This document shows positions 29,193 through 38,662 of a stretch of 64,000 nucleotides of DNA, one piece after another (within the stretch, counting starts at the first letter, position 1; each line of letters begins with the position of its first letter). Source of the DNA: a virus (Duplodnaviria > Heunggongvirae > Uroviricota > Caudoviricetes). The notes under the pieces are model-generated. The model had not been told where the DNA came from and did no database searches. It saw only the letters and a program-made list of their open reading frames with translations. The translations under genes were made by a program, and so were the position numbers. Location of the stretch: the IMG/VR virus record IMGVR_UViG_2778261689_000001, positions 1 through 64,000 of that record; one strand, written 5' to 3'.

Positions 29193-29894
29193 TTATTCTG
29201 ATTCTCGCTCAAAAAACGAGCTAATAAGGGGAAGCCAATCCTCTGACACTTCGCGAGGTCGCGGTTTGCCGTGGAAAAAGATTATTCGGCAGTCCTTTGG
29301 TAATGCCCCATTCCCCCTGGAGTAACGCGCGCTCGCATATTTTGAACCAGGTTCCACAACATCGGCCTTGTAACTTACAAACCATCCTGGATACAGATCC
29401 TGAAATGCTGGTGTATCATCGCCCATAACCTTTCGTAAGAACCCCTGGTCACCCCAGCACTCAGTAGTGACACAACGAGAAATCCAACCTTCCGGATCTT
29501 GCCAGAATGAACTCCAGATATGCGCTTTAACACTATTTGGTATCCACAGGGCACCGCTGCCACGATATTGTGGATGGTAAAAATCCCTAAGCATGGTGAA
29601 GCTGGTTGGTGGATGCTCTAGGATTGGGCGTATATCACCGGCAATAACCGTGTCCAAATCCAGATAGAACAGATCATCGGTTATATCCGGTCGGAACAAC
29701 TCGATTTTCGCCCACCAACCACGGCACTTTTGCCACTGGTTGATCAATGGGATAACTTTGACGCCAGGTACATGTAAACACTTCAGGTCTGTCAGGCAAA
29801 TAATTTCATAGTCTTTTGGCAGTTGATTAACCAGCCACTGCACATCGGAAGCGTTATAGTCACCACCAGAGCGAAGAACTAAAGCAATCTTCAT
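29193..29894 (-). CDS. GT-A-type glycosyltransferase-like protein (233 aa) with DxD motif
   Basis: FYLDLDTV (DxD) after an N-terminal Rossmann-like beta-strand ([10 protein letters not shown]). Confidence 0.4.
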
Positions 29895-30583
29895 GCTGCA
29901 CCATCACCTTTCACTTTCATCAATGTCAGGTTTCCGCAAAATACGGCACCAGTGTCGATATACTGCTGATTCCAGAATGTCTTCGGGCTTTTCACCGGAG
30001 TGTGACCAAAGATAAAACGATCTGCGCCCGAAATTTCGCCACCAATATCATCCATCGAATCACTGATACGCTCGCGCGCCCAGACAACGTTGAAAAGCGG
30101 TACCTCCTTACCGAATTGGTATTCATTATCCGGATAGTCGGCATGGGCTATAACGATAGTTTCTTGCCCGGTGTTCAACTCAATGATATAGGGCAGACGC
30201 TTTACCAGCTCCACCAGCGCCCAGGCTAATATTTCCTGATCAGTGTCCAGCATGAAGAACCATTGTCCGCCATTCATTAGCCAGTTATTCACGTTGCCAT
30301 CTGGACTTAACGCATCAATCATCAGCCGCTCATGGTTCCCCATCACTGCCCTGAACCAGGGCATCTGCAATAGTTCCAGACATTCGACATTTTCAGTACC
30401 GCGATCGATAAGGTCGCCGACCGATATCAGTAAATCCTGCGCCGGGTCAAAATCCACACGATGGAGTTCGGACATCAGTCTGGTGTAGCAACCATGCAGA
30501 TCACCAACAACCCAGACATTCCTGTATTTGGTACCGTCGATACGGTGATAAATTGTGGGTGCCATCATGTATTCTTCAGCCAT
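29891..30583 (-). CDS. ppp: Lambda-type Ser/Thr protein phosphatase (metallophosphoesterase, 230 aa)
   Basis: Motifs GDLHG, GDLIDRG, GNHE in canonical order and spacing. Confidence 0.8.
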
Positions 30584-31191
30584 TCTTTAAGAGTCATCTG
30601 CGGAATACCTCCCATTTTCCCGCATGAAACAACGTCAATCCGTTCACGCGCAGACTGGAATAACAAAGGCAGGTGACTTAGATTTTTTGGCGTGCCGCCG
30701 GAGTGAACGCGTGGTTCTTGTGTAGCGTCAACGCCCACCAGGGCGACATGTTTGAATCCGATATGGAAAGCCAGGTTCAGAGCACCATATGCACTATTGC
30801 CGCTGGCAATTTCATTCTCATCTTCGCAAAGTCCGAAATGTGCGGACCAGCGCCACGCCCACCACTCGGGAGAATTCGTATTTTTTGGCTCCATGCCACG
30901 TTCAGCCACACGACGGAAGCACAGAACGCCGTCTCTGACTTCACGTTCTTTAACATCGGGTAGTGCCATGCAATAACAAACACCACGGCGACGGCGGCCA
31001 CGACCAACGCGCCGCATATTGTCTGGCGATGGATCAAGTGTGAAAAAATAAGAAGCGCGGTTCAGCCAGTCGATGGCCCCATTGACCGCTATAATCGGCA
31101 CTCCGCGCGGCGCAACAAAGTTTGCGGCGCTTGGGCCACTGCCGACGATAATAACGCGATCACTGCCTCTAAATTTATTCTTGGGAAACAT
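30565..31191 (-). CDS. DUF115/Maf-like protein (VGSGPS motif), paralog 1
   Basis: N-terminal [11 protein letters not shown]...IIAVNGA motif; paralogous to the next ORF. Confidence 0.4.
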
Positions 31192-31751
31192 TGAATTGCA
31201 CTGCTCCTACTTGCATTCAAAATATGTAAATCTGCGTGTTTTTTGCGGGTATCCAGGAACTGCTGTTGCCATTTTGAAATAGACACCTGCGTTGGATTCC
31301 GTAGGGCTTGAGGGTGCGCGCCATGCCAATGAAGGCCGTTTTGCAGAGAACAGTCATAGCCGACTAATACAACTACTTCAGCCCCTGATTCAGCAGCCAG
31401 ACTGATAGCCTGCGCGCCGCTATTTACCCCTTCCGCCGGTCCACAATATCGCCTGTACTCCAACGAAAATGATTTCGCCGCCGCCAGGTTGGCTGTCACT
31501 TTGCGGAATTTCCCTCCCGGTATGGTGGATCCGTATTGCTTCCACCATGACAAATCACCGGCGTATAAGGCATAAATGTCATCGAACATCTGCCAGGAAT
31601 TGTTAACCGCGATGATTGAACAGCCAGTTTTTTCTATAGCAGCACAGTCCTCACGAGTGAGTGACGGACCGCTACCGACACAAAAAACAGTCCTAGTCGC
31701 CCTGGGTGGTATGTTCATTCTCAGCTGCAAATTCAGCCTCCAGGCGAGCAT
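31089..31751 (-). CDS. DUF115/Maf-like protein (VGSGPS motif), paralog 2; start uncertain
   Basis: TVFCVGSGPSL...IIAVNNS motif; track ORF overlaps the downstream paralog by ~100 nt. Confidence 0.4.
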   Translation of the reverse strand: MLAWRLNLQLRMNIPPRATRTVFCVGSGPSLTREDCAAIEKTGCSIIAVNNSWQMFDDIYALYAGDLSWWKQYGSTIPGGKFRKVTANLAAAKSFSLEYRRYCGPAEGVNSGAQAISLAAESGAEVVVLVGYDCSLQNGLHWHGAHPQALRNPTQVSISKWQQQFLDTRKKHADLHILNASRSSAIQCFPRINLEAVIALLSSAVAQAPQTLLRRAECRL

Positions 31752-31899
31752 TCATTTCAGCGATTACCGGGTCCACTACAGCATCTGCTTCCTGTTCATT
31801 ACGCGGCATGATCGATGCCAGCGATTCATAATTAGCCTTGGATGACACGATTATTCTCCCGATGTTAATGTGCGCTGTATCAAAGATACACATATGCAC
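31693..31899 (-). CDS. Small acidic hypothetical protein (68 aa)
   Basis: ORF only. Confidence 0.3.
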   Translation of the reverse strand: MHMCIFDTAHINIGRIIVSSKANYESLASIMPRNEQEADAVVDPVIAEMNARLEAEFAAENEHTTQGD

Positions 31900-31915
31900 T
31901 AATTAATTTATTATT

Positions 31916-37015: not shown

Positions 37016-37640
37016 TTTGACAGGGAAGTATCGGGCTGTAGTGATAAGCGTCGATGACCCTAAAGGTCTGATGCGTACACAAATACGTGTTGTCGGCATG
37101 ATGGATGGGTTACCAGATGCTTCATTGCCGTGGGCAGAAGCTATATTGTCCAATGCAAACACGTTTTCACCATTTCTGCCCGGCGATAAAGTATGGATAG
37201 AATTTCCCTACAATGGGGATTCTCGATGGCCATTGATAATCGGTTATGCACAGGATGCATCCGGTGGCGCTCCCAATGTGCCGCCTGAAGCGTCAGGACA
37301 AGGTGAAGGCTATGTACCGCCTGAAGTCGAAGGTGCACCAGCACAACCATCAACCAGCGCCAAAAAAGACTTTATTTCGTCGCGGAACGGACTAATGGAG
37401 GTCCGGACGGCGGGCGGAGCCTGGGCCGTTACGCACTTGAAAAGTGGAACAACAATCGGGTTCAACGAGGCCGGGGAGTTATATGCCATTTCTCAAGGTC
37501 CGGCATTCATCTCTTCCGCAGGAAATCTCGATATAAAGTCAGGCGCGGATGTCGCCCTGAAGGCGGGGGGAAGTATGGCGATAGAGGCCAGCGGGAATCT
37601 ATCCATAAAAGCCGCTCAAGTCTCTGTTGACAAGGCTTAA
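37008..37640 (+). CDS. Baseplate spike/hub protein (gpV/gp5 OB-fold-like, 210 aa)
   Basis: N-terminal [19 protein letters not shown]...PWAEA...[11 protein letters not shown]...P resembles phage gpV/VgrG OB domain; Gly-rich C-terminus. Confidence 0.45.
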
Positions 37641-37642
37641 GA

Positions 37643-37665
37643 AAAGCCCGGCGTTCGGGCTTTTC
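37643..37665 (+). terminator. Rho-independent terminator
   Basis: AAAGCCCG-GCGT-TCGGGCTTT followed by T-run. Confidence 0.6.
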
Positions 37666-37726
37666 TGTTATGACGGGTTCAATTTTTTATCCGTTACCGC
37701 ACGACGGTTTCTGCGTGATAAACGTC

Positions 37727-38662
37727 TCAAGCATCTTTTCCGCAATTGCCGACCAGGTGTGACACTGGACCTTTTTCAGCATTTTTCACGCGATCAACGC
37801 GAGCAATAACCTCATCCCAATCAATCCGCGACTTGATAACCATATGGTTCACCAAAGCCAGGCGATCTGGCGGAAGGCAATCGGGAGGCGTTAATACCAA
37901 CGCCCCGCACATTGCCGCCTCAAGTACAGTTAATCCAAGGCTTTCGGGATGCGTAACGATAAAAACGTCACTCTTACGCAATTCAGCTGCAAATTCGGTT
38001 GCTGGCACCGGCGTCCGCCTGTATGGAGTTACCGAAATATTCCCCGGATCAATGGTAACCAATCCGTCATCAGTCAACGTTCTGGCCTCATACGGAACGG
38101 TCAGACGCTGAAGGTTCATAAGGATACTTAAGGAGTGATCAAAACCACTAACATCAAATGCAGCGTGGTCTACAAAAATACGCAGAACATCGTCCGTTTT
38201 GGTTTCCAGATGGAACAGCTCCTGATTCGCTGCCCATCCAACATGTTTGTTAAAGCGATTATGACGTTCTAACCGACCGGGATTATCCAGGTACCGCCAG
38301 GTATCATCGCGGACAGTAAAAGTAATATCGACTGGTGCCGAATCCAGCATAGAACCGTCATATACCTGGGCTACCCATCCAGAGAATCGGCGACACAGTT
38401 GCATGCCTATTTCCCTGGGTACCGTAGTAAAATACCTCAATCCTGGTGCCAAAATGGCCTTCGCAGAACATGCTGTCGCAGCAGTCAACACAGCTTCAAC
38501 ATAATCCTCGGGGCTTTCGACGCCAGGGGAATATGGACGATGGTATTGCAATGTTACCCCAGCCTCACTAAAGGCGCAGGCCAGGTTGTAAGCCCACATT
38601 TCCGTATATGTTTTCACATCACTGATAGCTTCAAATTTTCGCCCAATGATCAGGATGTTCAT
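37727..38662 (-). CDS. GT-B-type glycosyltransferase-like protein (311 aa)
   Basis: C-terminal THPESLGLTVLEAAMCGALVLT resembles the GT1/GT4 E-x7-E/LEA motif. Confidence 0.4.
   Translation of the reverse strand: MNILIIGRKFEAISDVKTYTEMWAYNLACAFSEAGVTLQYHRPYSPGVESPEDYVEAVLTAATACSAKAILAPGLRYFTTVPREIGMQLCRRFSGWVAQVYDGSMLDSAPVDITFTVRDDTWRYLDNPGRLERHNRFNKHVGWAANQELFHLETKTDDVLRIFVDHAAFDVSGFDHSLSILMNLQRLTVPYEARTLTDDGLVTIDPGNISVTPYRRTPVPATEFAAELRKSDVFIVTHPESLGLTVLEAAMCGALVLTPPDCLPPDRLALVNHMVIKSRIDWDEVIARVDRVKNAEKGPVSHLVGNCGKDA

Follow-up and report, generated by a model that had tools for sequence, protein, structure and literature searches.

Putative glycosylation genes pmgO, pmgP, pmgQ and dbn of a P1-type phage-plasmid and their possible link to Kdo

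The pmg operon and dbn in the window

We studied four genes, pmgO, pmgP, pmgQ and dbn, that lie between positions 29193 and 38662 of a window of 64,000 nucleotides (nt), i.e. positions 1 to 64,000 of the IMG/VR virus record IMGVR_UViG_2778261689_000001. Over its full length the region 29193-38662 was 98.9-99.0% identical to phage P1 and to the P1-like phages JL22 and RCS47; its identity to P7 was 98.4%. The window is a P1-type phage-plasmid, and the published P1 annotation transfers onto it at a constant offset. We observed that pmgO, pmgP and pmgQ form a cassette conserved in unrelated phages, and all four gene products are predicted here to transfer sugars. The features of the locus are listed below; the pmg genes and ppp were placed by mapping the P1 annotation, and the operator is also taken from that annotation.

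29193-29894, minus strand: pmgQ
29891-30583, minus strand: ppp
30565-31191, minus strand: pmgP
31089-31751, minus strand: pmgO
31693-31848, minus strand: pmgN, a 51-codon open reading frame (ORF), the first of the operon
31893-31909, plus strand: operator Oppp (Op83) of the C1 repressor; the predicted PpmgN promoter, which serves the pmgN-pmgQ operon, overlaps with it
37727-38662, minus strand: dbn, open frame of 311 amino acids (aa); the restored frame (324 aa) would end at 37687
38961-40331, minus strand: ban, with dbn downstream of it

An original prediction, made from the sequence alone, had placed a GT-A-like protein with a DxD motif, a lambda-type protein phosphatase and two paralogous DUF115 proteins in one operator-controlled operon, had added a GT-B-like protein downstream of ban, and had proposed a phage-encoded glycosylation activity. 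Every element that it listed is real and lies where it had been placed, as judged from the mapped P1 annotation and the ORFs. The control by an operator was confirmed as well. The P1 C1 operator Oppp/Op83 reads TATGCACTAATTAATTT in the window and CATGCACTAATTAATTT in P1 (16 of 17 bases identical), and the genes behind it overlap, pmgQ with ppp by 4 nt, ppp with pmgP by 19 nt and pmgP with pmgO by 103 nt. A promoter and terminator scan of 28800-33000 found no convincing intergenic terminator and nothing above the shuffled expectation. The first gene, pmgN, is non-essential as judged by a viable knockout, yet it was scored essential by CRISPR interference, which could be a polar effect on the downstream genes. 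In P7 the genes pmgN to pmgQ are named hdmA-D, for 'head morphogenesis'.

Predicted families of the encoded proteins

PmgQ (233 aa, 99.6% identical to P1 PmgQ) is predicted from its profile and its modelled fold to be a GT8-like retaining glycosyltransferase (GT) of the GT-A type. Its motifs are a DxD at D79-L80-D81, GDQ at 148-150 and H208-G209. Among 45 PmgQ homologues D79, L80 and D81 were invariant, G148, D149, Q150, H208 and G209 were at least 90% conserved, and the conserved residues align to the glycogenin motifs DADT, GGDQG and HF.G..KPW. The profile of these homologues found in the PDB the Skp1 alpha-galactosyltransferase (6mw5, E = 1.1e-7) and glycogenin (2e-5). A Foldseek comparison of the AlphaFold model (pLDDT 94.7) with the PDB gave 168 matches at E<=0.001, of which the best 44 were all GT8 or GT8-domain enzymes; the fold matches include 6mw5 (7.9e-9), glycogenin, LgtC, GlyE and WbbM. 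Also, PHROG 1962 'glycosyltransferase' matched PmgQ at 1e-127. No Pfam family, PF01501 Glyco_transf_8 included, matched PmgQ at E<=0.1; the GT8 membership is therefore based on the profile search against the PDB (1.1e-7) and on the fold, not on Pfam. With glycogenin, AgtA, LgtC, GlyE and WaaJ/WaaO the protein shares the GT-A fold, the DxD, the GDQ and the C-terminal His; it differs from these GT8 enzymes in being compact, in lacking a PF01501 match and in showing no particular closeness to WaaJ and WaaO of the host. The DxD-motif GT-A-like protein of the original prediction thus proved to be a well-founded call, with an invariant D79-L80-D81 and best PDB matches that were all GT8.

PmgO (220 aa) carries the motifs SGPS 27-30, N50, D66, NSG 110-112, GYDCS 131-135 and HWHGxH 141-146, and PmgP (208 aa) carries GSGPS 17-21, N37, D53, GNS 131-133, G153, D155 and H173; 248 representatives of the PmgP family were collected. 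The two proteins had been described as paralogous VGSGPS proteins of the DUF115 family. This held, although the paralogy is distant: pairwise BLASTP gave E=0.004 only, and a comparison of the family profiles (hhalign, fusion protein removed) gave a 98.9% probability with E=1.3e-17. Sequence comparison thus identifies PmgO and PmgP as genuine but distant paralogues. A first hhalign value of 4e-39 was rejected, since it arose artificially from the presence of the fusion P0171 in the alignment. Homologues exceed the PF01973 cut-off of 34.6 bits, P0171 with 44.6 bits, scored over residues 177-326 in its PmgP-like half, and P0215 with 44.1 bits, and many PmgO homologues have a precomputed PF01973 match. 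PmgO itself matched the Maf-type nucleotide-sugar-binding fold; PmgP would share this fold, given its profile-profile homology to PmgO.

All nine PDB matches of the PmgP profile were sialyltransferases. The alignment sets the GxGPS motif and N37 of PmgP on GNGPS...N31 of CstII. The GT42 matches were marginal, with E = 0.013 for PmgP and 0.12 for PmgO, and covered only the GNGPS...N31 and SG...GID segments. Conserved His residues, candidates for a counterpart of CstII His188, are H173 in PmgP and H141, H143 and H146 in PmgO. PHROGs places PmgO under 'alpha-2,3-sialyltransferase'; compared with Campylobacter CstI/CstII (GT42), however, the E-values are marginal and the name is probably wrong on the sugar. 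The Maf flagellin glycosyltransferases (PF01973) are proteins of 632 aa with flanking domains, whereas PmgO and PmgP, at about 200 residues, correspond to the catalytic core alone. They also differ from Maf in being a paralogous pair with a GT8 partner, with no flagellin or nonulosonate synthesis genes near.

The two proteins likely act as a pair, because they are naturally fused in one phage (P0171, 376 aa, locus L003) and because their genes overlap in all unfused loci compared. In 7/7 of these (the window, L004, L103, L104, L106, L107 and L108) pmgP starts in the -1 frame within the 3' tail of pmgO, which is not conserved. In the window, for example, the last ~20 residues of PmgO, whose codons overlap the pmgP start, are not conserved. 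We take translational coupling, the simpler reading, to be the more likely explanation of the overlap. A programmed -1 frameshift that would yield a PmgO-PmgP fusion was unsupported, since no slippery heptamer is conserved across the loci; the window overlap does hold a heptamer of the Rous sarcoma virus type, A AAT TTA, starting at 31176.

Dbn is predicted to be a GT4-type glycosyltransferase, with a GT-B fold suggested by its sequence signature. Pfam Glycos_transf_1 (PF00534) scored 23.7 bits against a cut-off of 26.4, and two other families of the GT1 clan also matched below threshold; all three matches fall on the EX7E region. In 44 sequences the EX7E residues (E240...E248, THPESxGLxxLEA) were invariant, and so were H238, S241 and G243. 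The Dbn homologue of Escherichia phage IME392 reached 26.5 bits with PF00534, just over the cut-off, and the intact P1 Dbn has a precomputed PF00534 match. The Dbn profile found in the PDB a marginal match to a glycosyltransferase (8xsg, 0.0014) limited to the EX7E segment; a PDB search with the single sequence was uninformative, and in the N-terminal half no similarity to the acceptor domains of known GT-B enzymes could be detected. The likeness to GT4-type GT-B enzymes lies in the invariant E-x7-E and in the three GT1-clan matches on it. The call of a GT-B-like protein downstream of ban is thus borne out at the level of this signature. The P1 GenBank record labels Dbn 'possible glycosyltransferase', and P7 names it Glt.

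In the window dbn is probably defective through a frameshift. The window sequence SPECIFICALLY has five A's at 37772-37776 compared to four in P1 and P7, which shifts the frame of the last ~35 codons; when one A is dropped, a Dbn of 324 aa ending at 37687 is restored in place of a protein that has lost the conserved C-terminal ~35 residues. In the protein collection the window allele was found on 1 contig, and the intact form makes up a cluster of 2431 members. The frameshift reflects a sequencing error or else a recent loss. In P7 (L002) dbn has an early TGG-to-TGA nonsense codon, and 'glt' is annotated from an internal start. The gene appears to be decaying in some lineages. A 288-bp insert at 38663-38950 separates ban from dbn and is absent from P1 and P7. 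Its ORF (38659-38964, minus strand; 101 aa, PHROG 12809) overlaps the ban stop and the dbn start with its own start and stop; the exact 101-aa protein was not found in a collection of 15 billion proteins.

A cassette in unrelated phages and a passenger phosphatase

A PmgP homologue was detected in 27 of 50,697 phage records, and a PmgQ homologue was present in 27/27 of them, at a distance of 0.02-1.0 kb in every record with coordinates compared. A Dbn homologue was found in 22 of the 50,697 records, and all 22 had the pmgO-pmgP-pmgQ (O-P-Q) cassette. Therefore, the grouping is far beyond chance. The gene orders tell the same. In the Citrobacter rodentium phiNP-type lambdoid prophage, consecutive PmgO-, PmgP- and PmgQ-like genes separate the lysis genes from the terminase; in an unrelated phage contig (L003) the fusion P0171 and, after it, a PmgQ homologue have lysis genes on one side and tail-fibre genes on the other. 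In the jumbo phage XacN1, O and P occur with a Q homologue that is joined to a sugar O-methyltransferase of the TylF type, and phage IME392 has a contiguous O-P-Dbn-Q order (Dbn homologue, E 2e-108). O-P-Q is contiguous also in distant relatives of P1, and on a 281-kb contig (L110) a Dbn homologue is followed directly by a PmgQ homologue. Fusions with sugar O-methyltransferases, of TylF and Methyltransf_24 type, occur among the homologues. Thus unrelated phages have conserved pmgO-pmgP-pmgQ as a cassette. The set of four genes is a glycosylation toolkit that P1 shares with D3-like, lambdoid, jumbo and other phages, and all carriers with an assignable host infect Gram-negative hosts.

In phi456, Cronobacter JK004 and phiNP-type phages the O-P-Q cassette occurred with no match to Dbn. 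A scan of viral contigs with the PmgP alignment returned among its best 80 matches only near-identical P1-like contigs and no new contexts, and the PADLOC defence models matched none of these proteins.

The proposed link of dbn to the pmg genes, despite a distance of ~6 kb and a different operon, was borne out by the contiguous order in IME392. Because of these comparative gene orders and the co-occurrence, dbn functionally belongs with pmgO, pmgP and pmgQ, and ppp does not. Ppp (230 aa) is predicted to be a Ser/Thr metallophosphatase of the lambda NinI/PrpA type, as the original prediction had it: Pfam Metallophos PF00149 scored 59.3 bits against a cut-off of 21.5, a NinI-like PHROG matched at 5e-113, and the motifs GDLHG (27-31), GDLIDRG (56-62) and GNHE (82-85) are in place. 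In NCBIfam it stayed below the equivalog cut-offs of PrpA and PrpB (272 vs 326 bits). The phosphatase, which the original prediction had grouped with the other genes, is not a conserved partner of them. The gene stands between pmgP and pmgQ only in the closer P1 relatives (L106, L108). It is missing from the cassettes of a distant P1-like locus (L107), from those of L003, L004, L103 and L104, and from each non-P1 cassette that was read, among them those of the phiNP-type prophage, IME392 and XacN1, and in IME392 the Dbn homologue fills the slot that ppp holds in P1. Judged from these gene orders, ppp entered the cassette as a lineage-specific insertion and lies outside the mechanism proposed below. 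One could argue that Ppp is a functional member, which regulates the transferases or their target by dephosphorylation or processes a sugar phosphate. Its gene overlaps both pmgQ and pmgP within one operon, and the arrangement is retained in P1-like relatives at 60-70% identity. On the other hand, the gene is missing from five of the cassettes just named (L107, the phiNP-type prophage, L003, IME392 and XacN1), in one of them with dbn in its place, and phosphatases of the NinI/PrpA type are commonly stand-alone phage genes. We regard a functional role of Ppp within the unit as improbable.

The same associations bear on a quite different reading, in which PmgO and PmgP would be kinases like MptE or thiamine pyrophosphokinase and their GT neighbourhood coincidental, or in which the target would be phage DNA. 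The strict co-occurrence with GT8 and GT4 genes, with sugar methyltransferase fusions and with genes for the synthesis of 3-deoxy-D-manno-oct-2-ulosonic acid (Kdo), together with the exclusive matching of PmgP to sialyltransferases in the PDB, speaks against kinases. We know of no family among those present here that glycosylates DNA, and restriction enzymes readily cut P1 DNA, so DNA is an unlikely target. Overall, we consider this reading very improbable. A phage-encoded glycosylation activity was supported by the predicted family assignments, GT8 for PmgQ, sialyltransferase/WaaZ for PmgP and EX7E for Dbn, and domain and structure searches assigned none of these proteins to a family outside glycosyl transfer.

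Known phage systems offer a comparison. Mycobacteriophage virion glycosylation and the serotype-converting glycosyltransferases are likewise phage-encoded, accessory and non-essential in the laboratory, and the mycobacteriophage virion glycosyltransferase genes lie in or beside structural operons. The cassette differs from these systems in its composition (a DUF115 pair with a GT8 and a GT4 protein), in its Gram-negative hosts, in a probable ulosonic-acid donor and in the lack of membrane components of the Gtr type.

Two further features adjoin the operon, both from the mapped P1 annotation:

31916-32742: pmgM and pmgL, on the upstream side of Op83
32889-37640, plus strand: divergent tail/baseplate operon 26-25-7-24-6-5

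Though annotated as 'putative morphogenetic', pmgM and pmgL appear, from sequence matches, to encode proteins of DNA metabolism or of regulation. The C-terminus of PmgM resembles VRR-NUC and Holliday-junction resolvases (Pfam 3e-4; PHROG 5702 at 6e-27), and PmgL has a DksA/TraR-like zinc finger (PHROG 54 at 2e-13). To the left of 27426 the window no longer matches P1: the P1 gene pap is cut after ~43 codons, with the remnant inside an ORF at 27388-27693, and a segment of low G+C content (0.39-0.41) follows, with an ORF of 167 aa and one of 2635 aa (17931-25838, minus strand). The 2635-aa ORF starts with an extended signal peptide (MNKIYKVIWN...) and has a beta-barrel-like C-terminal end, in the manner of autotransporter adhesins. 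The segment 17931-27426 looks like cargo inserted into the P1-type phage-plasmid. Downstream of ban, the tciA region (40932-41521) had no DNA-level alignment with P1, and an ORF of 144 aa (40962-41396, minus strand) occupies the position of the P1 TerB-like gene tciA.

Donor, acceptor and meaning

The sugar donor of PmgO-PmgP is probably cytidine monophosphate (CMP)-activated Kdo, as we infer from the probable homology of PmgP to WaaZ and from the neighbourhoods of two loci. WaaZ (RfaZ; GT73) is the KdoIII transferase of the lipopolysaccharide (LPS) core in E. coli K-12. In hhalign the PmgP family matched an 11-sequence WaaZ alignment over its full length (179 columns) with a probability of 92.7% and an E-value of 4.2e-7; the two families share the motifs SGP(S/T) and IIAVNG. 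Precomputed matches to Pfam WaaZ_KDO_III, marked 'faint', are present on the O-P fusion P0171 and on the DUF115 protein of the bacterial locus L111. Identity to WaaZ is low, however, and the phage proteins are 75 residues shorter and paired, whereas WaaZ is a single chromosomal gene of the waa operon that acts on a lipid-linked core.

In the P1-like locus L107 a kdsB equivalog, which scored 270 bits with TIGR00466 (cut-off 155), follows downstream of O-P-Q at a distance of 2.7 kb. It is translationally coupled, through an overlap of 4 nt, to a gene for a HAD-family phosphatase, which is 30% identical (E 1e-20) to P1 Pap. P1 Pap (L001, 1858-2364) might be a KdsC-like Kdo-8-phosphate phosphatase left over from a phage module for Kdo activation. 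An unannotated gene of 271 aa precedes kdsB in L107 (12846-14892). The second locus, L111, is a bacterial capsule locus of the kps type, where kpsE/kpsF on one side and equivalogs of kdsA and kdsB on the other flank a Dbn homologue (E 1e-133) and a DUF115/WaaZ-like gene. The kdsB link is based on these metagenomic loci, L107 and L111, because no phage record that carries kdsB has the cassette.

To our knowledge, CMP-Kdo is the sole CMP-sugar of E. coli K-12, which makes no CMP-sialic acid. The RefSeq label 'sialyltransferase' is therefore probably right on the fold and wrong on the sugar. The Maf protein of C. botulinum O-glycosylates flagellin with CMP-Kdo of E. coli (PMC11339370).

Locus L111 invites a reading in which the enzymes would elongate or alter a capsule or another Kdo polysaccharide, that is a lipid-linked Kdo-hexose polymer of hosts of the kps type. 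The Dbn-like and DUF115/WaaZ-like genes form the serotype-specific part of this kps-like locus (with KpsT-like, KpsE, KpsF, KdsA and KdsB), and in L110 the Dbn-like and PmgQ-like genes lie within a cluster of the polysaccharide type with GT47-like and pyruvyl-transferase genes. This alternative is improbable as well: neither in P1 nor in the other cassette loci read was an exporter or polymerase gene found at or beside the cassette, the cassette is expressed in lytic growth and not from a lysogenic-conversion promoter, and P1 grows on capsule-free K-12.

In our main reading, to which we give a probability of about 0.5, P1 has in pmgO, pmgP, pmgQ and dbn its own version of an accessory glycosylation cassette that is conserved among phages with Gram-negative hosts. 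PmgO and PmgP, diverged paralogues of the Maf/WaaZ/CstII nucleotide-sugar-binding fold, would work as a pair and transfer an ulosonic acid from a CMP-activated donor, CMP-Kdo in E. coli. PmgQ, as a Mn- and DxD-dependent retaining GT-A enzyme of GT8, would add a hexose from a uridine diphosphate (UDP)-sugar, and Dbn, with its GT4-type EX7E, a further hexose. The product would be a short Kdo-containing glycan, which in some phages may be O-methylated (the TylF- and Methyltransf_24-type fusions). As the acceptor we favour a structural protein of the virion, which would be modified on Ser/Thr as flagellin is by Maf.

Our preference for a virion protein as the acceptor is tentative and comes from gene neighbourhoods. 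In D3 and in the Martelella and Onishia prophages a PmgO-like gene, with or without a PmgQ-like one, lies 0.1-0.15 kb downstream of the major capsid gene. PAJU2 and another siphophage contig have a PmgO-like gene (with or without PmgQ-like) inside the head-tail module, and a methyltransferase often accompanies these genes. For the nearest solved relatives of PmgQ, such as glycogenin, Skp1 GalT and GlyE, the substrate is mostly a glycan linked to protein. In PAJU2 (L114 ORF010) and in Klebsiella phage Eowyn (L113 gene 00005) the depositors annotated the PmgO-like protein as 'structural protein'; if this label goes back to mass spectrometry of virions, the transferase may itself be associated with the virion.

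Between the major capsid and PmgO-like genes of D3 (L112, 5691-5978) and of the Martelella prophage (L115, 6654-6941) we noted a protein of ~95 aa. The two proteins are alike over their length by eye and have a disordered C-terminal half rich in Ser, Thr, Pro and Gln; the protein is a candidate acceptor of O-glycosylation. In D3, orf6.5 and orf7 overlap a stop-to-stop ORF with a full PmgO-like domain (5762-6406), and orf7 may be annotated too short.

An acceptor among the envelope glycans, LPS included, is possible but doubtful. In its specific form, remodelling of the LPS inner core, the alternative would have PmgP and PmgO add an extra Kdo to Kdo2-lipid A as WaaZ does, and PmgQ and Dbn decorate it, on the cytoplasmic face of the inner membrane. 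The core that serves P1 as receptor would be altered or truncated, which would lead to superinfection exclusion or to a smaller loss of progeny on debris. Among characterised sequence families WaaZ stands nearest to PmgP, and the host core enzymes WaaJ/WaaO and WaaG/WaaB belong to GT8 and to GT4, respectively. Overexpression of WaaZ truncates the outer core, and P1 adsorbs to core glucose. The operon is C1-controlled, hence expressed after derepression, and its genes are non-essential. Envelope-glycan modification has also been proposed for GT clusters of jumbo phages (PMC7824862).

Conversely, the similarity of PmgQ to WaaJ (44% probability) and to WaaO (10%) was weak, as was that of Dbn to WaaG (10%); comparison of the two proteins with the host WaaJ, WaaO, WaaG and WaaB thus gave no specific support for an LPS acceptor. 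The repeated placement next to capsid genes, in late structural operons of siphophage prophages, fits an early action on LPS poorly, and the LPS already at the surface would presumably stay unchanged within one latent period. We judge LPS inner-core remodelling to be unlikely.

Several observations weigh against the modification of a virion protein with Kdo by these four enzymes, and we list them together. In the window PmgO, PmgP and Dbn all score under the curated Pfam cut-offs, with 23.6 bits for PmgO and 21.0 for PmgP in the case of PF01973. The PmgO family matched WaaZ weakly, at 23% probability. Among the phage records kdsB was found in 7 only, the cassette in 0/7 of these, and kdsB adjoins the cassette in one phage-like locus only. 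WaaZ, like the capsule locus, is part of a lipid or polysaccharide system, and this speaks for an acceptor in the envelope more than for a protein. Since dbn is frameshifted in the window and has a nonsense codon in P7, it is maybe dispensable. Plaque formation and anti-restriction stayed normal when pmgO, pmgP, pmgQ, ppp or dbn was deleted singly. PmgO, PmgP, PmgQ and Dbn were not detected in the P1 virion proteome, and neither the P1 virion proteomics paper nor two cryo-electron microscopy papers report a glycan or unexplained density; standard proteomic searches would miss glycopeptides.

GenBank, RefSeq and PHROGs already give these genes GT-like labels. In the open-access literature that we searched we found neither the four-gene cassette nor the exclusion of ppp nor the link to Kdo, and the structure of the cassette and the Kdo link appear to be new. 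The widespread labels 'alpha-2,3-sialyltransferase' and 'norphogenetic protein' are, our results suggest, misleading.

P1 is among the most used phages in bacterial genetics, and pmgO, pmgP, pmgQ and dbn have been without an assigned function since the P1 genome paper of 2004. The analysis turns these four orphan genes into a directly testable hypothesis. A broader form of it, in which P1 and many other phages of Gram-negative bacteria O-glycosylate their own capsid or tail proteins with a short glycan, started by PmgO-PmgP with Kdo from the CMP-Kdo pool of the host and then extended by PmgQ and Dbn, is speculative and in our view rather doubtful. If it were true, it would be the first description of a virion-glycosylation system among phages with Gram-negative hosts and the first case of natural protein glycosylation with Kdo, and a function could be given to four or five genes that are orphans in a classic model phage. 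Glycosylated virions would bear on the immunogenicity and stability of phages in therapy and on transduction tools; if it is LPS that is remodelled, the cassette would represent a new mechanism of receptor masking.

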